Shown here piece after piece: positions 5,598 to 59,732 of a stretch of 64,000 bases of DNA; the first letter of the stretch is position 1, and the number at the start of each line of letters is the position of its first letter. The notes beneath the pieces are model-generated. The model was not told the origin of the DNA and did no database searches. It was given only the letters and a program-made list of their open reading frames with translations. Both the position numbers and the translations under genes were made by a program. Source of the DNA: Alphaproteobacteria bacterium (GTDB lineage: Bacteria > Pseudomonadota > Alphaproteobacteria > GCA-2731375); assembly GCA_021776235.1 (NCBI GenBank), contig JAJFGG010000010.1, forward strand, positions 10,478 to 74,477, written 5' to 3'.

Positions 5598-5708
5598 GGC
5601 TCACGACCTCCTGTTTGGCATCGTCTTGCACAAAGTAATCATCCAGTCAGGCATAACTTATCCTAGAGAATGTCGAGGCTGGCTGGGCTCTGGTCTCGGG
5701 CGAACAAA

Positions 5709-6365
5709 TCAGCCGTCCAGATCCAGCGCCGCCGCCACGACCATTCTGGTGACATTCTCGACCAAAAGATCAATCTCCCGATCCCTCAAATGCCATTGGC
5801 GGAACGGCATAAAAGCCGTCAGAAACACCACGACTTCGGCCAACAAGCTGTAGCGCCCATGATCATCCTCGCGGCCTGTCAGGCGCCCAATATCGAAGGC
5901 GACCTTATCCACCAGGTCGGCATCCCTTTGCAGCAGCCGGCGCCGGTCCTCCACCGGCAGTCGCCCCGCTTCACGGTAGGCCAGCAAAATCGCCTGTGAA
6001 TTCTCGCGCCATGCAAACTGCAGGAAATTGCTGATATAGCTTTCAAGGTCAGTCGCGCTCGCGGTGTTGAATTCGGCCCGCATCGCATTGTCCGCACTGG
6101 GATTGTGCATGCGGTCGAGGATCCTGCGCAGGATATCCTCCTTGCCTTTCACATAGTCGTAGATCGACGCCTGGTTGACGGCCGAACGAGCGCAAATATC
6201 GCGTATGGTGGTGCTGCCATAGCCTTTTTCCAGAAACAGACCGAGGGCGGCATCCATGATTTGCTGACGTCTTCGGCGAACCAGTTTGCCGTCCTTGATG
6301 CGGCCACCATAGTCGTCAGAATCCGTCTGATGAGCGGCAGACGATGTCTTTTTTGTTTCGGGCAT
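5709..6365 (-). CDS. TetR/AcrR family transcriptional regulator
   Basis: 218 aa. N-terminal HTH region GYGSTTIRDICARSAVNQASIYDYVKGKEDIL. Sits 3 nt downstream of the ABC ATPase gene. Confidence 0.8.
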   Translation of the reverse strand: MPETKKTSSAAHQTDSDDYGGRIKDGKLVRRRRQQIMDAALGLFLEKGYGSTTIRDICARSAVNQASIYDYVKGKEDILRRILDRMHNPSADNAMRAEFNTASATDLESYISNFLQFAWRENSQAILLAYREAGRLPVEDRRRLLQRDADLVDKVAFDIGRLTGREDDHGRYSLLAEVVVFLTAFMPFRQWHLRDREIDLLVENVTRMVVAAALDLDG

Positions 6366-7360: not shown

Positions 7361-8321
7361 CAATCCAACACGCCTTCTTATGTTCATCAGCAACGGTTTC
7401 CAGTTCCGGGCGCTCCACGGCGCATCTGTCAATGGCATGGCGGCAACGCGGCCGAAATGGGCAACCGGGCGGGAGTTTCGCGAGATTTGGCGGCTGGCCT
7501 TCAATGGGGATCAGCTTTTCCTTGACGTCGTCATCCAGGTTCGGAATAGACGCCATGAGGCCGATGGTATAGGGGTGGCGCGGATCATCGTAGATACTGA
7601 TCGCGGTGCCGGATTCCACGATGCGTCCGGCGTACATCACGTTGACATGATCGGCGTACCGCGCCACTACGCCAAGATCATGGGTAATCAGGATCTGTGC
7701 GGCCCCTTGTTCCTGGGTCAGTTCCTTCAATAATTCCAGAACCTGCGCCTGCACTGTGACATCCAGTGCCGTGGTGGGTTCATCCGAGATGATCAGCTTT
7801 GGACTGCAGGATAGCGCCATGGCAATCATCACCCGTTGCCGCATGCCGCCTGAAAACTGATGCGGATAATCGCGCGCACGATTTTCACCGTCGGAAATTT
7901 GCACCTTGGCCAAAAGCTCGACGCAGCGGGCCATGGCGGCGTCCCGTGGCAAATTCTTGTGCACCTCGATGGGTTCGGCGACTTGTTCGCCAATGGTCAA
8001 AACCGGATTAAGGCTTGTCATTGGTTCCTGAAAGATCATGGCGATTTGATTACCCCGGACTTCGCGCACTTCTTCATCGCTCAATTCCAGCAGATCGCGG
8101 CCATCGAAAATGACCTCCCCATCGATAATTTCGCCCGGGGGACTGGGGATCAGGCCAAGTATGGAGAGCGCGGTAATGCTCTTGCCGGAGCCGCTTTCAC
8201 CGACAATGGCAAGGGTTTCGCCAGCCTGCACATCGAAACTGACGCCGTCCACGGCCTTCACGACTCCCGCATCCGTGAAGAAATGGGTCTTCAGGTTTTT
8301 GACTTGCAGAATGGCTGGCAC
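7344..8321 (-). CDS. ABC transporter ATP-binding protein, DppD/OppD-like (system 1)
   Basis: Walker A GESGSGKS. Signature FSGGMRQR. Walker [13 protein letters not shown]. Confidence 0.85.
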
Positions 8322-8472
8322 GAAAAAATCCTCTTGCGCTCAAAATGGCGGGCAATTCAAGCGCCGGCAAACTCGGGTCTATGGAATAATCAAATGAATG
8401 ACGATGCCGTGGCCGGGATGTGGGCCATTTGCCCACATCCCGGTGCGTCCACGATCATGGTAAGCGACAGGC

Positions 8473-10179
8473 TTAGAAACCCATCTTTTTCTTCATCTCC
8501 TGATCGATCCAGATCCGGGCATAAATCGGGCCTGGACGAACCGCGCCCACGCGCAATTCACCATTGTAGTTTTTCACCCATGGCCAATGGGCGCGATAGA
8601 ACACATCGGTCGGCAACCAGACATGGGGAACCTTTTCCTCGATAATGTAGCGGTTCAGGGCGACGAGTTCGCCTTGTGCCTTCGCCTCGTCGGTTTCCTT
8701 CGACATCGCCGTCCAACGTTTGTCAAAGCCTTCGTCCGCATGCATCGCCGGGTTCCAGGTCTGTCCGCTCACAAAACTCTTGCGCAGCACCTGAATTGGG
8801 TTGCCGCTGCCGTTGTTCATCAGATAACCGACGGACTGGGTCTCCTTGCGCATCTGTGAGCGGAAGGCGGCATATTCCAGCGGCTTGAGATCTATGGTGA
8901 CGCCAATCCGCTGATAATAAGCCTGCAGCATGGGAACCAGATCAACGTGATAGGGCGAACATGTGCAATACATCATCTCGAATGTAAGGCCATCCGGATA
9001 ACCGGCTTCCGCCAACAGGGCCTTGGCCTTCTTCGGGGCGTAGCTGAACAGCTCCTGACCCTTGGGCGAAAGCTTGTCGATCGGCGTATAGACGCTTTTC
9101 CAGGCGCTCGAGAACGGATAATTCAACGACGAGCCATCGCCATTCAGCAAGGTTTGCAGGATCTCCGGCTGGTTCACCGCCAGGTTCATCGCGCGGCGGA
9201 CCCGAACGTCGTTGAACGGCTTCTTGTCGTTGCGCAACGCAATGAACGTGCCCGTCGTGGACAGGCCTTTCTTTAGAACAAGCTCGGGCGCGGATTTCTT
9301 CAATTCATCCACGAACTGCCAGCGGATATTCTCCATGATGTCCGCTTTACCCGTGCGGATATTGGCAATCGCGGTCGCTTCGTCCTTGACCAAATGATAG
9401 ACCAGCTTGTTATTGAGCGGGAGCTTGTATGACTTGCCGCCGATTTTCGCACTGTCCCAATAGTCGTCGTTCTTGACATAGGTCTGATGGCTCGATTTCA
9501 CGACTTCCGTCACCTTGTAGGGACCGGAACCGATCGCATTCTTCCAATCGGCCCGCGCCTTGTCTTCAAGCTTGTGATACTCGGGGGGCAAAATAGCCGA
9601 GAAATAACCCCAGGCCAGGCGATAGGCCCAGTTGGCGTTGTATTCGTTCAGATGGGCGATGACCGTGTGCTTGTCTTTCGCTTCCCATCGGTCGATGAAG
9701 GCCCAGTAGTTGGGGATTTTGCGTTTCAACGTCCACATATGGGTGAAATGGTAGGCCACGTCGTCGGCGACGATTTCACGCTTTTCCATGACCCCCGGCT
9801 TCGTGGGCCAATACACACCCTTGCGGAGCTTGAACACCAGCTGCAGCGGATCTTTCTTCAGTTCAACGCTTTCAGCGATTTCACCGCGCATTTGATCCGG
9901 CGGGATATAGGCCTGAGCGACAAAATCATTGTCGTTGCTGCCACCCGGTCCGCGCGCTAAATCACCCGCGAACAGTTGATCCAGATGCAAACCATCATGG
10001 TTTTCCTTCCATATCCATTTTTGATAATCCCAGGACAGCGCGTTCAGCGTCCGGTAGTAGGATATGACATTTACCGTGCCACCCAGCTGTGGTTCCTCGG
10101 CGGAAGCGGCGCTGACCGCCCCCAGCGAAATGGTCGCGGCACATGCCCCGACCAGCCATTGTTTGATAGTCGACCTCAT
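8473..10179 (-). CDS. ABC transporter substrate-binding protein, family 5 (peptide/nickel type) (system 1)
   Basis: 568 aa. Signal peptide ending AASA. Length and overall composition typical of SBP_bac_5. Confidence 0.8.
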   Translation of the reverse strand: MRSTIKQWLVGACAATISLGAVSAASAEEPQLGGTVNVISYYRTLNALSWDYQKWIWKENHDGLHLDQLFAGDLARGPGGSNDNDFVAQAYIPPDQMRGEIAESVELKKDPLQLVFKLRKGVYWPTKPGVMEKREIVADDVAYHFTHMWTLKRKIPNYWAFIDRWEAKDKHTVIAHLNEYNANWAYRLAWGYFSAILPPEYHKLEDKARADWKNAIGSGPYKVTEVVKSSHQTYVKNDDYWDSAKIGGKSYKLPLNNKLVYHLVKDEATAIANIRTGKADIMENIRWQFVDELKKSAPELVLKKGLSTTGTFIALRNDKKPFNDVRVRRAMNLAVNQPEILQTLLNGDGSSLNYPFSSAWKSVYTPIDKLSPKGQELFSYAPKKAKALLAEAGYPDGLTFEMMYCTCSPYHVDLVPMLQAYYQRIGVTIDLKPLEYAAFRSQMRKETQSVGYLMNNGSGNPIQVLRKSFVSGQTWNPAMHADEGFDKRWTAMSKETDEAKAQGELVALNRYIIEEKVPHVWLPTDVFYRAHWPWVKNYNGELRVGAVRPGPIYARIWIDQEMKKKMGF

Positions 10180-43100: not shown

Positions 43101-45827
43101 ATGAGCACAGCAGCGACGGCGGGGACTGACAAGCCGACGCCCATGATGGAACAGTTCCTGGCGATAAAGGCGCAGTACGACGATTGTCTGCTGTTCTACC
43201 GCATGGGCGACTTCTATGAGATGTTTTTTGATGACGCGGTCAAGGCGGCCGAGGCCCTGGATATTGCCCTGACTAAACGGGGCAGGCATCGGGGCGCCGA
43301 TATCCCCATGTGCGGCGTACCCGTACATGCCGCCGATAGTTATCTGGCGCGGCTGATCCGCAAGGGTTTCCGCGTCGCCGTGTGCGAGCAGACGGAGGAC
43401 CCGTCGGAAGCGAAAAAGCGCGGCGGCAAAACCGTGGTCCGGCGCGCCGTGGTGCGCCTGGTGACGCCGGGCACCTTGACCGAGGAAACCTTGCTGGACG
43501 CCCGCGCCAACAATTATCTCGCCGTCCTGGCCCGGGTACGGGGCGCCAATGCCCTGGCCTGGCTGGACCTGTCCACGGCGGAGTTCCTGACCGCGCGGGT
43601 TGATACCGGGGCGATTGCCTCTGAACTGGCCCGCCTGTCGCCGGGGGAACTGGTGGTTTCGGATGCCCTGCTGGCGGCCCCCGAGGCCGAGCCGGGGGGC
43701 GGCGAATGGCGCCAGGACTGGGCTGACCGGATCACGCCCTATGCCGACGCGCGCTTTGATTCAGGCTCGGGCGAAAGACGCCTGCAAGCCTTGTACAAGG
43801 TCGCAGCCCTGGATGCCTTTGGTGATTTCAGCCGGGCCGAATTGGCGGCCTGCGGCGCCCTGGTGGAATATCTGGAAATGACCCAGGTGGGCCGCCTGCC
43901 CCGCCTATCGCCCCCGCGCCAGGTTGAAACCCGCGAGACCATGGCGATCGACCCCGCGACCCGGCGCAATCTGGAGCTGACCCGAACCCTTGCGGGCGAT
44001 ATTCCCGGCAGCCTGCTGGCCACCATCGACCGCACGGTGACAGGCGCCGGAGCCAGATTGTTGATCCAGCATCTTTCGGCGCCGCTGATGGCGCCCCAGG
44101 CGATCAACCGCCGCCTGGACATGGTCGACTATTTCATTGCCGGTGAACGCCTGCGCCAGGATTTGCGCGGCATTTTGCGCCAGGCTCCGGATATGGCGCG
44201 GTCCCTGGCCCGCCTGGGGCTGGAGCGCGGCGGGCCGCGGGATCTGGCCGCCATTCGCGATGGGCTGGCCGCGACCCATGGCTTGGGCCGGCTGTTGGCG
44301 GCAGCCGAACTGCCCCTGCCCCCGGACGGCATCATGGCGGCGGCCAGGGATCTGGGCCAACACGATACCCTGGTGGACGAACTGTCCAATGCCCTGGCCG
44401 CGGAACTGCCCTTGAGCAACCGGGATGGCGGCTTCATGGCGCCAGGTTACCGCCCCGACCTGGATGAATTACGCAGCCTGCGCGATGCCTCGCGCAAGCT
44501 GATTGTGGGCTTGGAGGCAGACTATCGCCGGCAGGCCGGGATCGACAACCTGAAGATCAAGCATAACCGGGTTCTGGGCTATTTCATCGAGGTTGCGGCC
44601 CGCCGCGCCGATGGCCTGATGGCGGCGCCTTTGAACGAGGTCTTTATCCATCGCCAGACCATGGCCAACGTGGTGCGCTTTTCCACCGTCGAACTGGGCG
44701 ATCTGGAACGTCGCATCGCCGAGAGCGCGGACAAGGCCCTGGCCCTGGAACTGGAATTATATTCCGAACTGGCGGCAGGCGTTTTGGCGCAGGCCACGGC
44801 CATCGGCCTGGCCGGCGGGGCCATGGCGGCTCTGGACGTCGCCGCCGCCAACGGTGAAATGGCCGCATCTGAACGTTTCTGCCGGCCCGTGGTGGACAAC
44901 AGCCAGGCCTTCCATATCGAGGGTGGCCGTCACCCGGTGGTCGAGGCGTCCCTGATGGCGCGCAACGAAGGCGCCTTTATCGCCAACGATTGCGTTTTGG
45001 GCGGCGAGGCGGGCGCTGGGACGGATGATGAAGCCCGGATCTGGCTGGTAACCGGCCCCAACATGGCAGGCAAGAGTACCTTTTTGCGGCAGAACGCGTT
45101 GATTGCCATTCTGGCCCAGATGGGCAGCTATGTCCCGGCCACCCGGGTTCGCATGGGGTCCGTGGACCGCCTGTTCAGCCGGGTCGGCGCGGCGGACGAT
45201 TTGGCGCGGGGGCGGTCCACCTTCATGGTGGAGATGGTGGAGGCCGCGGCAATTCTGAACCAGGCCTCGCCCCGGTCCCTGGTGATCCTGGACGAGATTG
45301 GCCGCGGCACGGCAACCTATGACGGCCTGTCCATCGCCTGGGCGGCGGTGGAACATCTGCACCAGGTGAATGGCTGCCGGGCCCTGTTCGCGACCCATTA
45401 TCACGAGCTGACCGCCCTGGCCGGCAAACTGGATGGCCTGGCCAATGTCACCATGCGGGTCAGGGAGTGGCAGGGCGATGTGGTCTTCCTGCACGAGGTC
45501 GCGCCCGGCGCCGCGGACCGTTCCTATGGCATCCAGGTCGCCAAACTGGCGGGGCTGCCCGCCTCGGTCATCGGGCGGGCCGAGGTGGTGCTGGCCGGCC
45601 TGGAAGATGGCGAGGCCCCCGGCCGCAATATCGGCCGCGAGGGCGCGGCCCGCCTGGCCGACGATCTGCCCCTGTTCGCCGCCACCCGGCCTACCTCGGG
45701 CAGCAGCAAAAAGCAAAACGAGCCATCCGCCCTGGAACAGGCCCTGGCCGACGTCCTACCCGACAACCTCAGCCCCCGCGAGGCCCTGGAGCTGATCTAT
45801 CGGTTGAAGGCCGCGGCGGAAGACTAA
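43101..45827 (+). CDS. mutS: DNA mismatch repair protein MutS
   Basis: 908 aa. N-terminus [34 protein letters not shown]. Walker [14 protein letters not shown]. Motif [23 protein letters not shown]. Confidence 0.95.
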
Positions 45828-45844: not shown

Positions 45845-46387
45845 ATGAAGGTACCAGCCGACGAAGTTATCCTTACTGATCGCTGCCGGCTACGGTACCC
45901 GGATGAGGCCGACATCCCGCATGTCTGGTCTGCCTCGCTTGTGCCTGGGTTCAACGACGGCTTGGCCTGGGAGCACCCCAAGAATGCCAAAGAGCTGGAG
46001 GCTAGGCTCAAGGAGACGAGGGAAGCCTGGGCCAAAGGCAGCGCCTATGCCTGGACAGCCGAATGCCCTGAAACCGGCAGCTTCATCGGCCGAATTGTCA
46101 TCCGCCGTGAGGACAAGCCAGGGGCATGGGCAATAGGTTACTGGATACACCCGGCGCACCAGGGAGCCGGCTATGCCACGGAAATCGCCTCGGCGATTGT
46201 GAATTTCGGATTTTGCCGGTTAGGCGCGACCGCCATTCGCGCGGCGCATGCCACCTGGAACGATGCCAGCGGGAAGGTTCTGCAACGTATCGGCATGAGA
46301 TTCGTAGGCTCCAATCCAAAGGGCTTTCAAAAACGCGGCAAATGGGTGGAGGAGTACGAATACGAAATCCACCCTACACCGCGGTGA
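45845..46387 (+). CDS. GNAT-family N-acetyltransferase (RimJ/RimL-like)
   Basis: 180 aa. Acetyl-CoA binding region [27 protein letters not shown]. Confidence 0.85.
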
Positions 46388-46481
46388 TGCCGCCGTCGAC
46401 GACCAGTTCGGCGCCGGTGACGTGGCGGGCTTCGTCGGACGCCAGGAACAGGATGCAATTGGCCACGTCCACCGCCTGGGC
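46388..46481 (-). pseudogene. 94-bp duplicated fragment of the 3' end of the SDR gene at 51149-51961
   Basis: 46388-46481 matches 51163-51256 at 93 of 94 positions. It continues straight from the GNAT stop exactly as in the native GNAT'/SDR junction. Confidence 0.75.
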
Positions 46482-46967
46482 GGCGGTGGAGCATTTACAC
46501 CAGGTGAATGGCTGCCGGGCCCTGTTCGCGACCCATTATCACGAACTGACCGCCCTGGCCGGCTAATTGGATGGCTTGGCCAACGTCACCATGCGGGGCA
46601 GGGAATGGCAGGGCGATGTGGTCTTCCTGCACGAGGTCGCGCGCGGTGCCGCGGACCGTTCCTATGGCATCCAGGTCGCCAAGCTGGCGGGACTGCCCCC
46701 TTCGGTCATCGGCCGGGCCGAGGTGGTGCTGGCCAGCCTGGAAGATGATGAGGCTTTCGGCTGCAATGGCGGCCGCGAAGGCGCGGCCCGGCTGGCGGAT
46801 GACCTACCTCTGTTCGCCGCCACCCGGCCGACCTCGGGCAGCAGTAAAAGCCGCAACGAGCCGTCGGCCATGGAACAAGCCCTGGCCGACGTTCTGCCCG
46901 ATAGCCTCAGCCCCCGCGAGGCCCTGGACCTGATCTATCAATTGAAGGCAGCCGCAGAGCTAGATTG
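46474..46967 (+). pseudogene. diverged partial duplicate of the mutS 3' end (last ~160 codons) with in-frame stop
   Basis: About 90% nt identity to 45336-45830. The stop-interrupted copy decodes [52 protein letters not shown]... A TAA at ~46564 replaces the Lys codon. The fragment begins inside a microhomology shared with the SDR fragment. Confidence 0.85.
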
Positions 46968-47170
46968 ATTGGCATCGAAGCCAGTCTCTACACGATCCCG
47001 CAAGTTTCAAGCGTCACAGTGTTCGAAAATACACCACTCCTTCGAATGCTTAGCGAGTCTGAGCGCACAAACAATAGCCACCCCATAGCTAACCAATTGA
47101 ATCTATTCGACTAGCAATGAGGCAGTGATCGTAGCGTCCCCTTTCTCCACAAGATAGCATCAATGACAAG

Positions 47171-47470
47171 GTGCTGGTAACGGAACGGAGCGCCTCCTTT
47201 GGCCACAATATTTTAGTCTGTGATATGCGTACCATGCCGGTATTGAAAGGTTTGAGCCAACCGGTGGTGTTCGATGCCACCCATTCGGTGCAGCAGTCGG
47301 GCTGCCAGGGTGGCTCTCGGGCGGGCAACGGGGAATGGTGCCCGTGCTGGCCCGCGCCGCGGTTGCCATTGGGGTCGCGGCGTGCTTCATGGAAAGTCAT
47401 GAAGACCCCAGCAGTGTGCTTGCAAGGACACGGCGACATGACCTCACCAATCTGTGCGCGTCAACTAGTG
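47171..47470 (+). pseudogene. remnant of 3-deoxy-8-phosphooctulonate synthase gene (kdsA-like), 5'-truncated and frameshifted
   Basis: Frame 1 reads [41 protein letters not shown], matching the KdsA ...LCERG...VIFDVTHSLQ...GGxSGG region. After a frameshift, [21 protein letters not shown] matches the downstream KdsA ...ARAAVAxGxxGLFxExHPDP region. Confidence 0.6.
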
Positions 47471-48573
47471 TGACGCCGCGCCCACACCACCGGAAGTAAT
47501 GCAGAAATTATTGCAAATAACAAAAAATAGACCCCCAGCCCAGAACTAATAGCTAACCCATTTAATGGAGGACCGCACGCTGCACCAAAAAGTATAGCCG
47601 CCGTAAGACGCTGTCCAACAAATTGAGGGTTCGTTCTGGCAACTGATGCCTGCAGTTTCGCCGCCAATGTGTTGAATGTTAGCTCGAAACAAGTCAGTGC
47701 GAAAAAGAATATTATATTGCTTCGCGCCAAGTATATGACCAAGATGCTAACAGAAAGAATGAGACCCAGGATCAGAAATCCACTCTTTCTATCCTGGTGA
47801 CGCGTTCTTGACGCCGCATACAAAAGCCATGAACCGCTGACGAGCTTCATGCCAACAAGAGACCAAACCGTGCCTCCCACCGCCATACCATGGGCAACTG
47901 CATTTTCGACCAGAAAAGCGAGGAAACCAGTTTGGCCGGCAAACAGGACGAATACCACGAGTAGTCCGCTATATCGCGGACCATTCGGTGCGGCTCCGCT
48001 ATCTCTTGGGCTGTGGGTTGTAAAGGATTCTACTGGCTTATAAAAACTTAGACCTACAATCAACGCAATGGAAAACGAGAGTGATAGAAACAACACAGTC
48101 GATCCGTAGGATTCGAGCGCTTTGCCAATTTCGAGAATTGCCGCAACAACACCAGCCAACAGAAGAACTATAGCTAGGCGCAGCGTAAATGCAAATGCCT
48201 GACGACAATAATTTGACGCAACATAGATACCCAAGTACTGAAATAATCCACAACTTAAACCTGTGAGAAACCACCCAATATACAATACGAGCTCCGCATT
48301 GTACAGTGACACAGCCAACCCCAACAACAGCAACACCGCAGAAAAAAACGCTGTTCTCACTCCTATCGAGTGAATATTCGCTAATGGTAATAGCAGCGAT
48401 GTTAGAAGTTGGCCCCCCAATAGAAAGAAAGCAATCCACCCGGCTTTTGCTGCTGAAATTCCTAGACCAGTGGCAACAACATGAACAATTAGCGGCATTA
48501 AGTGTAATGGGAGAGATCCAACGGCCGATAATAAGCTAGCCGAAAGAAGATTTCCTAAACCCTTCGGCATCAT
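47461..48573 (-). CDS. polytopic membrane protein, possibly MFS-type transporter/exporter
   Basis: 370 aa. ~10-12 predicted hydrophobic helices. No diagnostic catalytic motif. Low GC relative to the flanks. Confidence 0.55.
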
Positions 48574-48866
48574 TTTATCAAATGCAACATTAACAGTTCT
48601 TGAGAGCTTGTTGGCGCTGTCCTCGGTAGGCTACAGTGTTCGCCAATCGTAAAAAAGGATGTAGTTCGAGACTTAGTTTGGTGCACTTGAACCTATGGCT
48701 ATCTGAGTAAAAGATGAATTGGCTAGCCTACTGGCGAATAGACATTCTTTTATTTACCTCTGGCCGTATGGAACTTCGGTCGATAGACAAAATAAGCAAC
48801 TGGCATGCACATGGGCCCGACATTTCCTTCTAACACACAAGTCGTGAACAATTCGATCTCATATGA

Positions 48867-49655
48867 CTAATTGTTATCAGTCTTGGATCGACGACGAGCA
48901 CTTACGCCATAAGACCCAGTCGTGTGATCATCAGCCTTTGGATCTGCGTCTCTAATTGTTTTACGGAAGCCGCTCCAATCGTCATTCGACATCTCAGCAA
49001 TTCCGTCGGGATTAGATTGATTTGTGTCAATGTTATTTCTGCCTAACGTCGCTTCAGAGTAACACTCTCTCCGTACTGGCTGAACTTGGAATAACGGTTT
49101 CCACTTCGAAATCGTAATTTCACGGTTAGTAGAGATCAGCCGTATATTAACAAAGAGGGGAAGGGGTTTAAAACGGTCAGTCTCGACGATGCCTTCATAA
49201 CAAGCAAAGCTGGTACTTTGCGGAAAATTGGCCAATGGACGTATGAGGACGCTCCAGTCTGAAACGGTACTTACGAACAATCCGGACCAGATTTGCACTA
49301 TACCAGGTACGAAAAGACACGACAGGTATGGTGGTGCTCGTCCCTGAAGGTCGACAGGTGCAAATTTATTCCACTGATCCAAAAATTCGTCCTCGAATTG
49401 TACCGATGACAATGCGCGCCAGTCATCTTCATGTCTATAAAAAACTTCAGAGCCGGTCCACATCAAACCAATATCAGTTGGTGGGAATACATACCAGCCG
49501 TAGGCAGAAGCCGTCCGCACTGGTTCACAATATTGATATGACGCAACCGGTAATGTTCCCAATGCGGATTTGTCGGCTCGCATGGGCGGGATTGCGTCCG
49601 GATAGATATTCTGAAATCTAACTATATTTTCCATGGAACTTCCAACCATCTTCAA
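48867..49655 (-). CDS. hypothetical protein (no recognisable domain)
   Basis: 262-aa ORF in the low-GC islet. Same orientation as the flanking genes, and the coding-like codon usage is consistent along its length. The probable start is the internal MENIVRF. Confidence 0.5.
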   Translation of the reverse strand: MKMVGSSMENIVRFQNIYPDAIPPMRADKSALGTLPVASYQYCEPVRTASAYGWYVFPPTDIGLMWTGSEVFYRHEDDWRALSSVQFEDEFLDQWNKFAPVDLQGRAPPYLSCLFVPGIVQIWSGLFVSTVSDWSVLIRPLANFPQSTSFACYEGIVETDRFKPLPLFVNIRLISTNREITISKWKPLFQVQPVRRECYSEATLGRNNIDTNQSNPDGIAEMSNDDWSGFRKTIRDADPKADDHTTGSYGVSARRRSKTDNN

Positions 49656-49680
49656 CCCCGCCCGAGAAATACTAATTCGT

Positions 49681-49941
49681 CTACGTTTTGCGGATGTGCG
49701 TCGCCACTCTAGGAGAGATTAAGCCTCCGCCTGTCTGTGTTCCTGTGGATGTTTTCGTGGTGGCAGTCTTCATGACACGCGCGTAGTGCGTCGCCACCTT
49801 CGGAGAGATAACTCCACCGCCTGTCTGTGTTTTTGCGGATGTTTTCGGGCCGGCGGCATTCGTGATGCGCGCATGGTGGGTTGCGACTTTTGGAGAGATA
49901 ACTCCTCCCCCTATTTGCGTCTTGGCTTTTTGCATCGTCAT
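49681..49941 (-). CDS. small internally repetitive protein (3 x ~28-aa repeats: TQ(I/T)GGG(V/L)ISP(K/R)VATH..)
   Basis: 86-aa ORF fully covered by three 84-bp tandem DNA repeats. The repeat phase preserves the reading frame. It is the first gene after the AT-rich region. Confidence 0.5.
   Translation of the reverse strand: MTMQKAKTQIGGGVISPKVATHHARITNAAGPKTSAKTQTGGGVISPKVATHYARVMKTATTKTSTGTQTGGGLISPRVATHIRKT
49690..49941. repeat. imperfect 84-bp tandem repeat, 3 copies
   Basis: Units start near 49690, 49774 and 49858. Each shares the core GTCGCCAC(C/T)T..GGAGAGAT(A/T)A(C/G)(T/C)CC(A/T)CC(G/C)CCTGTCTGTGT. Confidence 0.8.
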
Positions 49942-49944
49942 ACA

Positions 49945-50171
49945 CCTTCTCTATTGGTCCAAAGAACGCCTACTATAGGCAGTAAAAATATACCTTGAGT
50001 GAATCATAATTGCAATATTAAATTCGTATCTATTATTAGAATATTTTTATGAAAGTAATACTCTCAATTCACGTATAAATACATTATTGAGTTGTAAATC
50101 ATATTATTACTCTTATTTTATTTGACATAATGACAACTATATCTCTATTTTTGTGCATAAGTATTCGATAA
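49945..50171. promoter_or_regulatory. extremely AT-rich (~25% GC) intergenic block, putative divergent promoter / xenogeneic-silencing target
   Basis: About 230 bp of A/T runs (TATAAATACATTATTGAG, TTATTTTATTTGACATAATGAC) in an otherwise >60% GC genome. It sits upstream of the minus-strand three-gene islet operon and the plus-strand small ORF. Confidence 0.4.
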
Positions 50172-50417
50172 ATGAGCATTAATGGTATGTTAGGAAGCTG
50201 TTTTGAGAGTCGGGGCCGGAGATTACGCGGCGCAAATTTCTGCGATGATTTTGCACAATTTGTACCTCAACCACCTGAGGATCAGTCTAAAGTTGTAGCC
50301 ACCAGCGCTCATAATCGAATCATTGGCGTCACCCCGCACAATTGGGGTCAGCACAACTGGGATCTACCATCGAATTTTGAGGAATTCCGCTGCTGTTGTG
50401 CGGTGGGTATGTGGTGA
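50172..50417 (+). CDS. hypothetical small ORF (81 aa, Cys-rich C-terminus FRCCCAVGMW)
   Basis: An ORF only. It starts right at the edge of the AT-rich block. There is no motif support. Confidence 0.25.
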   Translation: MSINGMLGSCFESRGRRLRGANFCDDFAQFVPQPPEDQSKVVATSAHNRIIGVTPHNWGQHNWDLPSNFEEFRCCCAVGMW

Positions 50418-50519
50418 ACGCGCGATTGCGAGTTATCCACATATCCAGCGCTCACGATGCAAGATTGTTTATTCGTTTGCGGATGGCGGTTGTGGCGGTC
50501 GGGGTATAGGCTGTCACTG

Positions 50520-51162
50520 ACGGGAGTGTGGCTGCGCCCGCAATTTGGCGGCGGTGATGCCACCAGGCCTACGGCCAGTTCATGGCCGACGGGACGCGTG
50601 ACCGCGGCTTTGTTCTAGTCGATGGCTTGCAGGGGGCGGTGACGGCGGACAGTGTTCTGGGTGGGGAAGGCTGTCGCGCCGGCCTGCCGGCGCCTATTGC
50701 CAGGCGGGTAGCGAGGTGGTGAAGCGCCAGTGCCATCTGACCCGGCCCTCTCTGGCCGGCCTGCGTGCAGGGGCGGCGAGCAACGAGCGGACCTGGATGC
50801 AAGCGCAACAGGCGACGTCTATGCCCGGACCGCTAAGTCCCTATACACAAGCTTGTTCATAGGTCGAATTGTCACCCGCCGCGAGGGCAAACCAGGAGTC
50901 TGGCCAATCGGAGTCTGGATCCATCCAGAGCACCAGGGGAACGGCTATGCCACACAAAATTGCGTTCGCCCTCGTAGACTTCGGGTTTATGCGGCTGGGC
51001 GCCAGTGCCATTCGTGCCGCACACACGACCTGGAACGATGCAAGCCGGAAGGTTCTTCAACGCATCGGCATGAAATTCATCGGCATAAATTCAAAGGGTT
51101 TCCAAAAGCGCGGCACTTGGGTCGAGGAATACGGGTATGAAATCCGCCTCACAGCGCCGTAA
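50520..51162 (+). pseudogene. degraded second copy of the GNAT acetyltransferase gene (frameshifted; recognisable from ~50800)
   Basis: FIGRIVTRREGKPGVWPIGVWIHPEHQGNGYAT and [55 protein letters not shown] are ~80% nt identical to 46082-46387. Contains a 1-nt indel. The 3' end overlaps SDR-A convergently by 14 nt. The left boundary is uncertain. Confidence 0.65.
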
Positions 51163-51946
51163 TGCCGCCGTCGACGACCAGTTCGGCGCCGGTGACGTGG
51201 CGGGCTTCGTCGGACGCCAGGAACAGGATGCAGTTGGCCACGTCCACCGCCTGGGCCGGCTCGCCCATGGGGATGCGCCGGATCGAGGCCGCCAGGGCTT
51301 TCTCAGGGTCACCGCCGCCCATGCGCATGACCAGATCGCCCATGTCGGTCCGGATGGTGCCCGGATGCACGGAATTACAGCGGATGCCCAGGCCCTTGCG
51401 GGCGCAATCGATGGCCACGGATTTGCTCATCTGCCGCACCGCGCCTTTCGAGGCGCCGTAGGCCACCGCGCCGGGCGTGCCCACCAACCCGGCGATGGAG
51501 GACAAATTGACGATGGAACCGCCGCCCGCGCCGCCCTTCTCACGGCCGCCATCCGCGGTCATGGCCGCCACGCCATACTTGCAGCCCAGGAAGACACCTT
51601 CCACATTTACCGCCTGCACCGCGCGCCATTGTTCCAGGTCCGTCTGGTCCAGGAACTGATAGGGCGTGGTGGCAAGGATGCCTGCGTTGTTAATCAAAAT
51701 ATCCGGGCGGCCGTGGTGCGCGGCCACAGCCTGCATAATACGCTGCCAATCCGCTTCCTGGCGCACGTCCTGCTGCAAAAAGGCCGCCTTGCCGCTCAGT
51801 TCGTCAGCCACGGCCTGGCCCGCCTCGGTGTTCACGTCGGTGATGGTGACCATGGCGCCTTCTTCCGCCAGCAGGCGGGCCGTGGCCCGGCCTATGCCGG
51901 TGCCCCCGCCCGTTACAATGGCGACCTTGCCTTCGACCCGGCCCAT
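51149..51946 (-). CDS. SDR-family oxidoreductase (paralog A)
   Basis: TGGGTGIGRA cofactor motif. Catalytic YGASK. Start taken at MGRVEGK. The ORF track extends to 51961. Confidence 0.85.
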   Translation of the reverse strand: MGRVEGKVAIVTGGGTGIGRATARLLAEEGAMVTITDVNTEAGQAVADELSGKAAFLQQDVRQEADWQRIMQAVAAHHGRPDILINNAGILATTPYQFLDQTDLEQWRAVQAVNVEGVFLGCKYGVAAMTADGGREKGGAGGGSIVNLSSIAGLVGTPGAVAYGASKGAVRQMSKSVAIDCARKGLGIRCNSVHPGTIRTDMGDLVMRMGGGDPEKALAASIRRIPMGEPAQAVDVANCILFLASDEARHVTGAELVVDGGITAL

Positions 51947-51965
51947 CTGCAAACCTCCCAAAGGC

Positions 51966-52775
51966 CTAAATAGCTGTCATGCCGCCATCGACAACCAACT
52001 CGGCGCCGGTCACATGGCGAGCCTCGTCAGAGGCCAGGAACAAAATGCAATTCGCCACATCCACCGCCTGACCCGGTTCGCCCATGGGTATGACCTTGAT
52101 CCGGGCCGCCCATTTGGCGTCCGCATCGCCAGCGCCCAGGTTCATGACCTGATTACCCATATTTGTGACGATGACGCCCGGGTGCACGGAATTACAACGG
52201 ATGCCCAGGCCTTTGCGGGCGCAATCGATGGCCACGGACTTGGTCATCTGACGCACCGCGCCTTTCGAGGCGCCATAGGCCACCAGATGCGGCGTACTGA
52301 TCAGACCGGCGACGGACGACATATTGACGATGGCGCCGCCGCCGTCACCACCCCGAGGGCGTTTTTGGGCCCGGCCACTGTCGGCTGTCATGGCCGCCAC
52401 TCCATATTTGCAGCCCAGGAAGACACCTTCCACATTGACCGTCTGCACGGCCCGCCATTGCTCCATATCCGTATCGGCCAATTCCTGGCTGTTGCCAGTA
52501 GCCAGAATACCCGCGTTGTTGATCAGAATATCCGGGCGGCCGTGGCGTTCCGCGACCGCCGTCATCAGGTTTTGCCAGCTCGCCTCTTCCCGCACGTCAT
52601 GTCGTACAAAGGCCGCATCGCCGCCCAATTCAGCAACCACGGCCTGGCCGCTTTCGGCATCAAATTCCGCGATGGTGACAATAGCGCCTTCTTCCGCCAG
52701 GCGGGTGGCGGCAGCCCGGCCAATGCCCGTACCACCGCCCGTAACGATCGCAATTTTTCCCTCTACGCGGCCCAT
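51966..52775 (-). CDS. SDR-family oxidoreductase (paralog B, ~75% aa identity to A)
   Basis: TGGGTGIGRAAA and YGASK motifs. A 4-nt gap separates it from paralog A. Confidence 0.85.
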   Translation of the reverse strand: MGRVEGKIAIVTGGGTGIGRAAATRLAEEGAIVTIAEFDAESGQAVVAELGGDAAFVRHDVREEASWQNLMTAVAERHGRPDILINNAGILATGNSQELADTDMEQWRAVQTVNVEGVFLGCKYGVAAMTADSGRAQKRPRGGDGGGAIVNMSSVAGLISTPHLVAYGASKGAVRQMTKSVAIDCARKGLGIRCNSVHPGVIVTNMGNQVMNLGAGDADAKWAARIKVIPMGEPGQAVDVANCILFLASDEARHVTGAELVVDGGMTAI

Positions 52776-57017: not shown

Positions 57018-57403
57018 CTTTGCCGAAATAACTTGGTCCGCGCGATCCTGCATTGAGGCACGTCGCGGTTATTCTGAACCATTTGACCAGTTTTCCAGGC
57101 CCCGTTTGCAGGCGCCGTTCGCGGGCCGATATGGGCATCGGCCAACGCAGAAATGACAATTATACAATATGGCGCTTGAAGCTGGATGATAAACGGACAC
57201 CGACTTAACAGTGCCAGCCTTCCGATTGGTGCCATAAGCTGCCGTCAACCCGGTGCAGGTCAATTTTAATGTACGGACAAGTAAAGACGTTGAATTTTGA
57301 ACCCCAACAGAGAGATTTAGCCAGGTATTGCAATGGCCGGTTGTATTTGCAGTTCAAATGCAGACATAGTGATCTAATCGGCGGAATTCATTGCGCCAGC
57401 TTC

Positions 57404-59188
57404 TTAGGACTCATCTCCATTCTTCAGGCCTAAACGATAAAGCGATTCTATCGCCCGTACAGCGCGTACCTGAGAGGGTGTCCAACGCTGTATCCAGTGC
57501 TTGGGCGAAATCTCGTTTGGCTTAAAATCCATTCTGGAAATAACATTTCTGGCATCGGTGTCACGACCGAGTGCAGCATAGGTTGCAGCACGATACGCCT
57601 CCATGTTTGGCGCGTCAGGGCCGCCGATTAAGATATTACGTTCAAATGCAATGATCGCATCGTCATACCGCTGAATATTGTAATAGGCCATGCCAAGGAT
57701 ATTCAAATAAGGTGTCCCGGGCTCCAGAGGGTCCAGGCGAATGGCTTCCAACAAGGGCGAAATCGCTTCTTTCGATTTACCGGCAAACATCAACACACCG
57801 CCGAGCCATTGATGGGCGAGTGGATCGCCAGGATTAAGCGCTACTGCTCGACGAACTTGTTTTACGGCTAGGTCTGTTTTGCCGGACAATGCGTAAGCTA
57901 GGCCCAGCATCGCGTGGCCACTAGCGAAACCGTCATCGAGCTTTATCGCCCTTTCCGCTAACTCGATCGCCTTCTTTAAGTCGGATTCCAGTTGCGCCGA
58001 GTGTCTGAAAAGAACCATGTATGAGTGAACCTGGGACAAACCGGCATATCCGCCCGGGAAATCTGGCTCCAAGGCAATGACACGCTTATGGAGCGATCGT
58101 GAGGATTCCACACGGGCGCGTTCGTTTGGTGGATTTATTCCTACTGTCGCGCGACGCAACAAATCAATTGCTTGGTAGTTGCTCGTATTTCGAAGATAGA
58201 TTCGTTGGCTAACATCATCGTCGATAGTGACCGAAAGGGCACCAGCTATGCGTTCCGACAATCTGTCCTCCAATTCAAACAGATCGTTCGTTTGTCCCTC
58301 GAAGCGTTCGGCAAAAAGAGCTTCGGTGGTCTCGGTATCGATCAACTGGACACTGATCCGAACCCGGTCGGACTGGACTCCCAAAGATCCTCTGACCACG
58401 TGCGTGACGCCGTGGTTTATCCTTAGTACTTCCAAAGGGATGGCGTTTTTTGCGGCTGTTATTGAAGATCGGATCGCCATTACCGATAGACCTGATAACT
58501 TCGAGAGATTGGTTGTTACAGCGTCAAGATAACCTGTGGATATCCTGTCGGAAATCGCGCTACCCTCCAGCCCGGTTAGAGGTAAAACAACGATAAAAGG
58601 CTTGCTCCGAGAAATTGCGCCGGACTGCTCGAGTTTTTGATTGGCAGGCATTTTATCAGCGTACTGCGAAGTAAAAACTCCAGCCCCAAGGATCATATAA
58701 CCGACAGCCACAAGAAATCCCGCTGCGACAGCGATGGACACAACAATGCGTAAACTCAGATTAGGATTTCCTCTGGCCCCAGGAAGAAATTTAACAAAAG
58801 CGTTCGCCTGAGGGCCATCGGGTGGATGTTCTGACTTTAAAAACCGGGGAACATAGGAGCCGGAGATCATTTCTATGTGTACTGGGTCGTCCCTTCCGGA
58901 TGTCAAATAATAATGGCTGAGTTTCCGACGAAGCCTCGCAGCGGTTACCCGAACAATCGAGTCGACACTCGCCCCCTCTTCCGCACCGCGTTTAAATACG
59001 TCTAAGGCAATTGTTGTCGCTTTAATACCATCCGATCTCCCTTCGAGCGCTTCTTCAACGATGTATTGTAAGAAGCCGGATAATCTGGCCGTACCTTGAA
59101 ACTCGTCACTTCTCAATACGCGCTCAAGGGCATTTCTAACCTCTGTCACGGTTACATTTGATTGCGTATCGTTTTCAGATTCAAGCAT
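57404..59188 (-). CDS. membrane-anchored transcriptional regulator: N-terminal winged-helix (OmpR/CadC-type) DNA-binding domain, one TM helix, C-terminal TPR repeats
   Basis: N-terminal VRNALERVLRSDEFQGTARLSGFLQYIVEEALEGRSDGIKATTIALDVF (trans_reg_C-like). Hydrophobic segment VVSIAVAAGFLVAVGYMILGAG. TPR-like A..Y...G repeats in the C-terminal half. Confidence 0.6.
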   Translation of the reverse strand: MLESENDTQSNVTVTEVRNALERVLRSDEFQGTARLSGFLQYIVEEALEGRSDGIKATTIALDVFKRGAEEGASVDSIVRVTAARLRRKLSHYYLTSGRDDPVHIEMISGSYVPRFLKSEHPPDGPQANAFVKFLPGARGNPNLSLRIVVSIAVAAGFLVAVGYMILGAGVFTSQYADKMPANQKLEQSGAISRSKPFIVVLPLTGLEGSAISDRISTGYLDAVTTNLSKLSGLSVMAIRSSITAAKNAIPLEVLRINHGVTHVVRGSLGVQSDRVRISVQLIDTETTEALFAERFEGQTNDLFELEDRLSERIAGALSVTIDDDVSQRIYLRNTSNYQAIDLLRRATVGINPPNERARVESSRSLHKRVIALEPDFPGGYAGLSQVHSYMVLFRHSAQLESDLKKAIELAERAIKLDDGFASGHAMLGLAYALSGKTDLAVKQVRRAVALNPGDPLAHQWLGGVLMFAGKSKEAISPLLEAIRLDPLEPGTPYLNILGMAYYNIQRYDDAIIAFERNILIGGPDAPNMEAYRAATYAALGRDTDARNVISRMDFKPNEISPKHWIQRWTPSQVRAVRAIESLYRLGLKNGDES

Positions 59189-59404
59189 TATTTTGGCATG
59201 ATAACTAGTATTATTCTCTGCGGCAAGCTCGAAGAATAGCGGAAAAATGCCAGCAAATTAAACTCATTTCCACCCTTCATCAGCTACCTTGTCACCGTTA
59301 CATGGCCCGCGCTGAAACCGTGTGACCAGTAGTTTCGTCGGTCGAATCTTGTTTTGTTATGGTGAATTATCAAACAATGATGTGAAGAGGCGTTTCAGCG
59401 ATCG

Positions 59405-59635
59405 ATGTCCAAGATTGAAAATCCAGCATTACAGAGGTTTCCTCAGCAGGAGGCTCAAATCAAAGAATTGATGAAGCGCGAAAAGGATTTCGCCTGCATC
59501 TGCCGCGATTATGCCGAGATTGTCTATCAAATCAGTGAGACTGAACGCTCGACTGGGCAGAGTGTTGGTGCTTTGGCCGATCTCATCGAACTACGCTCGG
59601 ATCTTGAACGCGATATTCTAGACCGACTTGCCTAA
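59405..59635 (+). CDS. hypothetical small protein (76 aa)
   Basis: An ORF only, in the intergenic space between the regulator and the sulfatase. Charged, helical-looking sequence. Confidence 0.3.
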   Translation: MSKIENPALQRFPQQEAQIKELMKREKDFACICRDYAEIVYQISETERSTGQSVGALADLIELRSDLERDILDRLA

Positions 59636-59732
59636 TGCAGTCCCGTATCGACGGCTCTCAAGCAGGTCGACGATAAAAACAGGAGAGAACGATGCGTAAA
59701 CGTGTTTTCAGAACGGAAGAAGGAGCAATAAC

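Follow-up and report, generated by a model that had tools for sequence, protein, structure and literature searches.

The pantocin A cluster paaPABC of Pantoea agglomerans is a minimal cluster for a ribosomally synthesised and post-translationally modified peptide (RiPP), with a short precursor, one or two tailoring enzymes and PaaC, an exporter of the major facilitator superfamily (MFS). What the cluster finally yields is a small molecule cut out of the peptide; PaaA is a ThiF/E1-like enzyme, PaaB an Fe/2-oxoglutarate enzyme, and the precursor PaaP consists of one core and a leader. The microcin C cluster mccABCDEF combines a tiny precursor with a nucleotide-using enzyme and the MFS pump MccC, which exports a conjugate of about 1 kDa, and is often found on mobile low-GC DNA; its MccB is an E1-like adenylyltransferase acting on the C-terminal Asn. 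Multi-core precursors are known from fungal dikaritins (ustiloxin UstA), cyanobactins (PatE) and plant orbitides, and hydrophobic cores rich in Gly and Pro are a usual mark of small cyclic peptides. Here we describe a low-GC islet in the genome of an Alphaproteobacteria bacterium (assembly GCA_021776235.1, contig JAJFGG010000010.1), situated in a stretch of 64,000 nt that was analysed as a whole and is referred to as the window. The islet carries three minus-strand genes, encoding an 86-aa repeat peptide, a protein of the Pfam family DUF6065 and a polytopic membrane protein. Judging from these genes and their relatives, we consider it probable (roughly 60%) that the islet is a self-contained cassette of a previously undescribed RiPP-like type with a leaderless multi-core precursor.

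The logic of the DUF6065 cassette resembles that of a RiPP cluster. Its closest analogues are pantocin A, microcin C and the multi-core precursors, none of whose enzymes is present, and it may be regarded as a candidate new RiPP class. With pantocin A it shares the minimal cluster logic including an MFS protein; however, the islet has no enzyme of the PaaA or PaaB type, its precursor is leaderless and multi-core, and its enzyme is DUF6065. A small precursor, an MFS protein and low-GC DNA are also features of microcin C, whereas neither an E1-like enzyme nor such an Asn is found here, and any nucleotide use by DUF6065 would be speculative. Tandem conserved cores, variable spacers with basic sites and varying copy number are shared with dikaritins, cyanobactins and orbitides. 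These rely on DUF3328 oxidases, the subtilisin-like PatA/PatG and prolyl oligopeptidases, of which the cassette holds no homologue; the DUF6065 system differs further in being bacterial (Pseudomonadota) and in lacking a signal or leader peptide. The original prediction had singled out the islet as the best candidate in the window for an undescribed system, and indeed no literature or curated model describing it was found: a literature search on DUF6065/PF19541, and on dUTPase together with RiPP, returned no relevant paper, and NCBIfam contains no model for any of the three proteins.

The peptide, the DUF6065 protein and the membrane protein

The low-GC islet between the mutS–GNAT pair and two short-chain dehydrogenase/reductase (SDR) genes is real, with a GC content of 0.47 in the module against 0.59 in its flanks. 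In 300-nt segments, GC was 0.40–0.51 over 47550–50400, with a minimum of 0.31 at 49950–50249, and 0.60–0.72 in the local flanks including the mutS/GNAT side; the window has a mean GC of 0.58, and its lowest 2-kb bin is that of 48–50 kb. The three open reading frames (ORFs) are intact and form a unidirectional minus-strand unit, as had been proposed, at 49681–49941 (86 aa), 48867–49655 (262 aa) and 47461–48573 (370 aa). A putative AT-rich control region (49942–50175, minus strand) lies 5' of the peptide gene. Its AT-rich block at 49985–50175 has a GC content of 21.5%, and sigma-70-like −35/−10 pairs, which are consensus matches only, were found on the minus strand at 50067–50038, 50032–50003 and 50015–49987. 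Between the DUF6065 and MFS genes lies a non-coding gap of 293 nt (48574–48866), compared to 7–120 nt in related cassettes; it contains no ORF and no match to the unit profile described below or to Rfam.

The precursor-like gene (49681–49941, minus strand), recognised as an ORF and by the unit profile, encodes MTMQKA followed by 2.7 units of 30 aa. Three repeats of 28 aa had been suggested, but Tandem Repeats Finder gives a period of 90 nt, that is 30 aa, with 2.4 copies and 77% matches at 49696–49912 (minus strand; direct repeat family D8), so that 2.4–2.7 copies are present. Each unit, one of which reads KTQTGGGVISPKVATHYAR, consists of a conserved 15-aa core, TQxGGG(V/L)ISP(K/R)VATH, and a variable basic spacer. 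No signal peptide or leader was found in the protein. The first unit starts 1–6 residues past the Met, both here (MTMQKAKTQIGGG) and in locus L022 of the comparative set (MKKVQFGAG), which leaves no room for a leader.

The codons of the repeats are informative about translation. Between units 1 and 2, 10 codons of the 15-codon core (TQxGGGVISPKVATH) differ, nine synonymously and one non-synonymously, while in the 14-codon spacer nine codons differ, one synonymously and eight non-synonymously. This pattern means that the frame is translated and that purifying selection bears on the core but not on the spacer. A unit profile built mostly from other genomes matched only this ORF among the six frames of the window (E 6.6e-26; three domains of 30–31 bits each), the next best match having an E-value of 0.057. 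A Shine-Dalgarno (SD)-like GAAGG can be read 4 nt upstream of the ATG. The exact 86-aa sequence is absent from the protein collection, and a word-based homologue search gave no candidate.

According to the original prediction none of the proteins belonged to a family that could be named. Database searches, which it had put forward as a check on the 86-aa and 262-aa proteins, bear this out for the former, for which neither Pfam nor NCBIfam holds a family. The membrane protein is MFS-like, and the 262-aa protein, an ORF as described, belongs to a named though uncharacterised family: it matches Pfam DUF6065 (PF19541) with 40.3 bits (cut-off 26.6, E 3.4e-10). Its length is probably 255 aa. The longest ORF starts at TTG 49655, but the most likely start codon is ATG 49634 (gene 48867–49634, minus strand), in agreement with the database protein P0001; a GGAAG motif can be read 5–6 nt 5' of this ATG.

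All 27 aligned homologues match the DUF6065 model, and those on Rhizobium plasmids are annotated by RefSeq as 'DUF6065 family protein'. A word-indexed search yielded 375 relatives, the closest non-self ones being 62–65% identical, and a profile search of 1.84 billion representatives returned 604 clusters at 50% identity (E ≤ 1e-3), nearly all of single-domain proteins of about 250 aa. A single member, P0263 (452 aa), carries an HD-like DUF6817 (E 2.8e-15; weak HD_4) fused to DUF6065, a possible hint of nucleotide or phosphoester chemistry or possibly a gene-calling artefact. Residues 113–194 of DUF6065 weakly match phrog_7084 (E 3.4e-6), a phage family without assigned function; a tblastn search of 50,697 phage genomes gave nothing.

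An AlphaFold model built on the 27 homologues has an all-beta core (pLDDT 79.7 overall, > 90 in the core), which two methods assign to a dUTPase-like beta-barrel fold, the predicted jelly-roll/beta-clip barrel of the dUTPase/dCTP deaminase superfamily. At the sequence level, DUF6065 and dUTPases share 8–17% identity, and no Pfam dUTPase/DCD match was obtained at E ≤ 1. Correspondences to dUTPase motifs noted by eye (IWSG, GIVETD, PLFQ) were unverified and were downgraded to speculation. The flexible N- and C-terminal extensions of DUF6065 are conserved; about 100 residues go beyond dUTPases and bring an invariant Cys-Glu motif of their own. In contrast to the trimeric dUTPases and dCTP deaminases, the genomic partner of DUF6065 is a peptide gene and not nucleotide metabolism.

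Conservation was assessed over 81 homologues of 40–100% identity, numbered from ATG 49634. About 30 residues are conserved in at least 98% of them: D21, G26, P29, C36, A42, S43, G46, W47, F50, G61, W72, P93, P102, Q114, W116, G118, W127, N136, E147, E151, P159, L160, N163, T169, P180, Q183, P186, W220, Y242 and R247; E37, beside C36, is conserved in 96%. This pattern is enzyme-like, and we regard DUF6065 as a putative peptide-modifying enzyme. Both the Cys-Glu motif and a C-terminal G-x-Y...R-x-R-x-K arm lie in low-confidence segments of the model and are probably mobile.

The 370-aa polytopic protein (47461–48573, minus strand) is the ORF originally described, to which an MFS fold can now be added. 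The window protein has no Pfam match. Its 20 relatives form a small orphan family, several of them on contigs with DUF6065 matches; four of the 20 weakly match MFS_1 (best E 5.7e-5), and the homologue in locus L087 has a precomputed MFS_1 assignment. An AF2 model (pLDDT 87.1) shows 12 long helices with a central loop at 183–197, and Foldseek retrieved OxlT, NorA, MdfA and MCT1 with a probability of 1.0 and TM values of 0.65–0.75. By its predicted structure the protein is a divergent MFS transporter, and a putative exporter.

The cassette in other genomes

Relatives of the DUF6065 protein occur in Alpha-, Beta- and Gammaproteobacteria of soil, freshwater, marine and rhizobial origin, in no fewer than 217 species-representative genomes, with Polaromonas, Variovorax, Bradyrhizobium, Roseomonas, Sulfurifustis, Hyphomicrobiales and Burkholderiales among the carriers. 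Of the 217 species-representative loci found, 80 were kept for comparison, together with six metagenome or genome loci and the Rhizobium plasmids. Co-occurrence of the three genes, proposed earlier as a check, was clear: the trio keeps its gene order across many genomic contexts that are unrelated to one another. Its flanks differ among loci and include ribosomal-protein genes, flagellar genes, dehydrogenases and toxin-antitoxin pairs. Since the flanking genes are unrelated between loci, the cassette itself appears to be the unit of inheritance.

To detect repeat peptides independently of any motif, we compared pairs of segments within same-strand ORFs that end at most 300 nt upstream of DUF6065 and required 8 or more identities in 12 positions. 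Such an internally repeated ORF was present in 69 of the 82 DUF6065 loci, compared to 3.4% of other ORF segments. This test replaced earlier regular expressions for the unit, which had reached 39 of the 82 loci and missed many variants. Several of the clusters obtained by single-linkage clustering of neighbouring ORFs were spurious groups of high-GC antisense ORFs and were ignored. The unit profile matched almost exclusively ORFs ending 29–170 nt upstream of the DUF6065 gene.

Where the enzymes are at least about 45% identical, the upstream ORF carries 1–15 copies of K-x-V-Q-[FM]-G-[GSA]-G-x-I-[SAP]-P-x-V-x-x-H-[LV]-x-K-K. L022 has 14–15 units, L005 has 12 and L002 seven perfect 18-aa units; L087 has a gene-called precursor with three units (MRQIQVGGGIISPKVAVH... 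/ MRQIQVGGGIISPKVAVHVQKAAKPKVQTGGGIISPKV...). The multi-unit ORFs span 60–320 aa. Distant enzymes (40–47% identity) are also preceded by a repeat ORF, with variant units such as SRRVRYGxGxAP...AIRFGxGxAPASLRK (ending in a stop), KVRLGGxSPSLPPVR, KVRLGGGKKPF, VEVGNGAIAPKVA, KVSMGGMRSPYLAR, TAMGAIHKPAALKKH and DDGKVHIANKSPAFD. Common to the units is a basic residue, a hydrophobic one, any residue, another hydrophobic one and Gly (at times Ala), followed after two to five residues by [Ser/Ala]-Pro, any residue and a hydrophobic one; many precursors stop right after ...SP[AS][FL]. Gly, Pro and hydrophobic residues are the only near-universal ones, and His is not universal. A compensating His in the enzymes of clades whose peptides lack one does not exist.

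Enzyme clades defined by identity clustering sort the loci by unit type: GGGxISPxVxxH, VRYGxGxAP / IRFGxGxAPASLRK, VEVGNGAIAPKVA, VSMGGMRSPYLA, VRLGGxSPSLPPVR and VRLGGGKKPF. Such grouping of unit type with enzyme clade is the signature expected of an enzyme co-evolving with its substrate. Some loci show other arrangements. The chromosome of Polaromonas aquatica (L011) has two precursor genes, one with four units at 5650–5970 upstream of DUF6065 and one with 10 units at 7905–8585 after the MFS gene, and L030 has two precursor genes upstream. On the Sinorhizobium medicae plasmid pMl1 (L085, 3384–4597), a DUF6065 protein of 28% identity overlaps a non-repeat ORF of 169 aa and neighbours an amidohydrolase, a SAM methyltransferase and an S8 peptidase, which suggests that the wider Pfam DUF6065 family has other types of partner.

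Of the 78 loci with enough sequence, 55 have a polytopic membrane ORF at a distance of at most 1.6 kb. In 45 of them the transporter is directly downstream on the same strand; 24 of these are EamA/DMT proteins, 17 belong to the orphan MFS family and four are others, including canonical MFS_1, and homologues of the window type were seen directly 3' of DUF6065 in about 17–20 loci. That two unrelated transporter superfamilies occupy one slot argues for a functional requirement for transport. The slot is a case of non-orthologous replacement at a fixed position. EamA/DMT and MFS proteins normally carry small metabolites, and neither belongs to the ABC/C39 class of peptide exporters.

In 47 of the 82 loci the cassette is flanked by a soluble protein of 450–990 aa with tetratricopeptide repeats (TPR), encoded divergently from the peptide gene or convergently after the transporter (for example L011:3727–5508, L064:7610–10177 and L083:3091–5139). 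At their N-terminus these proteins have an output domain that varies between loci (weak homology to class III cyclases, BTAD, or Crp-type cNMP-binding plus helix-turn-helix and cyclase), followed by a TolB_N-like region and C-terminal TPR repeats, and they have no transmembrane (TM) segment. Proteins combining BTAD and TPR are a typical kind of cluster-situated activator for secondary-metabolite genes, and peptides are ligands of TPR domains; the flanking protein is a candidate for a dedicated regulator or sensor. A cytoplasmic TPR protein with an output domain beside a small-peptide gene recalls the RRNPP (Rap/NprR/PlcR/PrgX) and SARP/BTAD regulators, but the TPR proteins are not RRNPP homologues and no Opp-type importer is linked. 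In the window islet no TPR gene adjoins the cassette or its peptide gene. The nearest one in the window (57404–59188, minus strand) is 7.5 kb away and encodes 594 aa with one TM helix (148–166), a TolB_N-like region and TPR; the protein shares 24–28% identity (best E 2e-22) with the sensor region of the cassette-flanking cyclase/BTAD-TPR proteins but differs from them in its membrane-anchored architecture. It lies in a second low-GC patch (57100–59700, GC 0.43–0.51) between glnD and a sulfatase-like gene, and a functional link to the cassette is possible.

Gene debris and arrival of the islet

From left to right, the region holds the intact resident mutS (43101–45827), the intact resident GNAT gene (45845–46387), a 3' scrap of an SDR gene, a fragment of mutS (mutS'), a kdsA remnant, the cassette, the AT-rich block, a GNAT pseudogene (GNAT') and two minus-strand SDR genes (51149–51961 and 51966–52775). 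The latter are tandem paralogues of 73–84% nucleotide identity, 4 nt apart. The gene debris that the original prediction had placed on both sides of the islet was confirmed by blastn, Pfam and phmmer matches.

The xenologous mutS' fragment (46467–46968, plus strand) corresponds to roughly the 165 codons at the 3' end of mutS and contains an in-frame stop (46564–46566). It matches MutS_V in Pfam (E 2e-11), and by blastn 46467–46958 is 89% identical to 45329–45820 of the resident mutS over 492 nt with zero indels. Between the two copies the proportions of synonymous and non-synonymous differences (pS and pN) were 0.276 and 0.058 (pN/pS 0.21). As the differences are mostly synonymous, the copies seem to have diverged as working genes in different lineages; an in-situ tandem duplication followed by decay is disfavoured by this ratio and the lack of indels.

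The adjacent remnant of kdsA, encoding KDO8P synthase (47171–47499, plus strand), is a frameshifted 3' part with ORFs in two frames, of which 47171–47340 matches KDO8P synthases of the PDB (phmmer, E 2e-17); the remnant also matches Pfam DAHP_synth_1 (E 2.4e-4). On the right, GNAT' (50795–51162, plus strand; repeat families D2 and D6) is 5'-truncated and frameshifted into two overlapping frames. It is 71–82% identical to the intact GNAT gene, with 79% over 50810–51162 by blastn, and its C-terminal piece matches Acetyltransf_3 (E 8e-6). Neither the small ORFs in 50172–50808 nor an antisense ORF over the kdsA remnant (47089–47439) contain domains.

The SDR scrap of about 100 nt (46381–46481, minus strand; repeat family D4) had not been mentioned before. 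By blastn, 46036–46481 is 79% identical to 50810–51256, and 46373–46478 is 82% identical to 51965–52070, so that the scrap is slightly nearer to the second SDR gene than the longer segment is to the first. A 15-nt microhomology, GTCCACCGCCTGGGC, at 46467–46481 forms both the end of the SDR-scrap homology and the start of the mutS' homology. Read from these alignments, the scrap marks an illegitimate junction at the microhomology, which together with the pN/pS of mutS' points to homology-facilitated illegitimate recombination next to mutS. In the simplest history, a donor fragment mutS3'–debris–cassette–GNAT'–SDR from a relative would have recombined via SDR homology, its other end being joined illegitimately at the microhomology and the resident mutS and GNAT left intact.

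Compared with 50 similar loci, for which the median difference is −0.017, the module here has the largest GC mismatch, which indicates a recent arrival. No integrase or transposase domain was found in the small ORFs, no tRNA in the window, and nothing credible in Rfam for the islet or the whole window; in these searches no sign of a classical mobile element appeared. The composition of the islet is deviant, and its boundaries are the xenologous mutS' and GNAT' with the microhomology junction. By these sequence comparisons, the islet was acquired horizontally and a foreign mutS fragment arrived with it. The locus is a clean example of gene gain beside mutS by homology-facilitated illegitimate recombination.

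A RiPP-like reading and its rivals

An acquired module of precursor, tailoring protein and exporter, the architecture that had been proposed, is supported by the co-occurrence of the three genes, the co-variation of unit and enzyme and the non-homologous exporters at one position. As in RiPP clusters, a precursor gene with a conserved core stands beside a putative modifying enzyme. The precursor reading is favoured by copy numbers that vary, a gene order that is strict, the co-variation of unit and enzyme and the way in which codons differ. Rivals of another kind are excluded, as searches with PADLOC (no match at E ≤ 0.1 for any of the three cassette proteins), with Rfam and for tRNAs found no competing defence-system, RNA or tRNA feature.

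If the islet is such a cassette, transcription would start in the AT-rich block and run through the three genes. The 86-aa product would be a leaderless multi-core precursor and the substrate of DUF6065, each 30-aa unit holding a recognition segment and the core TQxGGGxISPxVATH between basic residues. The cytoplasmic DUF6065 protein would recognise every unit, probably via the basic-hydrophobic-x-hydrophobic strand, and would act on the Gly-rich / X-Pro segment by modification or excision; its invariant residues include Cys36, Glu37, Gln114, Asn136, Glu147, Glu151, Gln183, Tyr242 and Arg247. General cellular peptidases would trim at the basic spacers, and the MFS protein would export the resulting small product. 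Our leading guess, by analogy, is a cofactor-independent backbone chemistry at Gly...X-Pro via Cys/Glu, such as cleavage/transpeptidation, cyclisation or epimerisation/isomerisation. An NTP-dependent modification, suggested by the fold and by the precedent of the MFS-exported microcin C, would be our second guess.

Several points weigh against this reading. The repeat test was failed by 13 of the 82 loci, some with single or divergent units. The cassette has neither a leader or follower nor a RiPP recognition element (RRE), Pfam showing no RRE in any cassette protein, and recognition would therefore have to lie inside each unit. A protease and an ABC/C39 exporter are absent from the cassette, and the usual cargo of MFS and EamA transporters is far smaller than a unit of 17–30 aa, so an extra trimming step must be assumed. 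To our knowledge no RiPP enzyme has a dUTPase-like fold, and we know of no case in which this fold has been linked to peptide chemistry. Hhalign comparisons of the family profile with E. coli Dut and with a three-sequence dUTPase profile gave probabilities below 1%, which leaves nucleotide use by DUF6065 speculative. Among the 81 homologues no His is conserved and no cofactor motif is recognisable, and the chemistry can therefore not be named. In this islet, moreover, the missing TPR regulator and the unusual 293-nt gap before the MFS gene suggest that the cassette may be poorly expressed.

These last two features could also mean that the islet does nothing in this genome and is inert cargo, transferred recently without a regulator and heading for decay like the debris beside it. 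Pseudogenes lie all around it, the TPR regulator of so many related loci is lacking, the gap is wider than in other cassettes, and the strong GC mismatch implies a recent arrival. However, each of the three ORFs is intact and, judged by its homologues, complete, SD-like and promoter-like sequences are present, and the core repeats are under purifying selection; we regard inertness as unlikely, and it would concern activity here and not what the cassette is. It is likewise improbable, on our reckoning, that DUF6065 acts on a nucleotide-like or other small metabolite moved by MFS or EamA, with the repeat peptide as multivalent inhibitor, activator or scaffold of a probably oligomeric enzyme, comparable to dUTPase–Stl. 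The dUTPase/dCTP-deaminase-like fold, the small-molecule type of the transporters, the fusion of one family member to HD-like DUF6817, and near-universal peptide residues (Gly, Pro and hydrophobics) that include no reactive side chain would all suit such a role. On the other hand, no retention of dUTPase motifs is demonstrable at the sequence level, unit copy numbers of 1 to 15 between close relatives fit a stoichiometric substrate better than a fixed regulator, and the strict upstream position with co-variation of unit and enzyme is typical of precursor–enzyme pairs.

The small ORF might instead have no part in biosynthesis and encode a leader that is translated, or else a repeat protein that is structural, rich in lysine or metal-binding, and would then just precede or regulate an ordinary two-gene operon of DUF6065 and transporter. 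Ribosomes could stall at X-Pro and Pro-Pro motifs (for example LPPRV and MPPRV), the sequence of the peptide is basic and of low complexity, and it is rarely called as a gene, its exact sequence being missing from the protein collection. We consider this very unlikely: ORFs of 60–320 aa with up to 15 units far exceed known regulatory leaders, selection acts on the amino-acid core rather than on the structure of the RNA or the identity of its codons, in many clades each unit contains just one Pro, and the motif co-varies with the enzyme. A further reading takes the cassette as the producing half of a system, widespread in Pseudomonadota, for signalling or for a natural product derived from a peptide. 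The dUTPase-fold enzyme would turn each unit into a small diffusible molecule, which MFS or EamA proteins would export and the cytoplasmic TPR-cyclase or TPR-BTAD proteins encoded beside most cassettes would sense. Such a system would correspond in function to RRNPP quorum sensing, in Gram-negative bacteria and with a new enzymology; we hold it to be doubtful.

Should the RiPP-like reading be true, DUF6065 would define a new class of ribosomal peptide natural products, and a function would be given to a domain of unknown function. The novelty would lie in a fold otherwise known for nucleotide hydrolysis and deamination, in leaderless precursors of up to 15 cores, in exporters of the small-molecule type, and in a compact and widespread family. 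The cassette would then be a three-gene system, readily transplanted, in which to look for new peptide chemistry; it might also yield a signal of Gram-negative bacteria that derives from a peptide.

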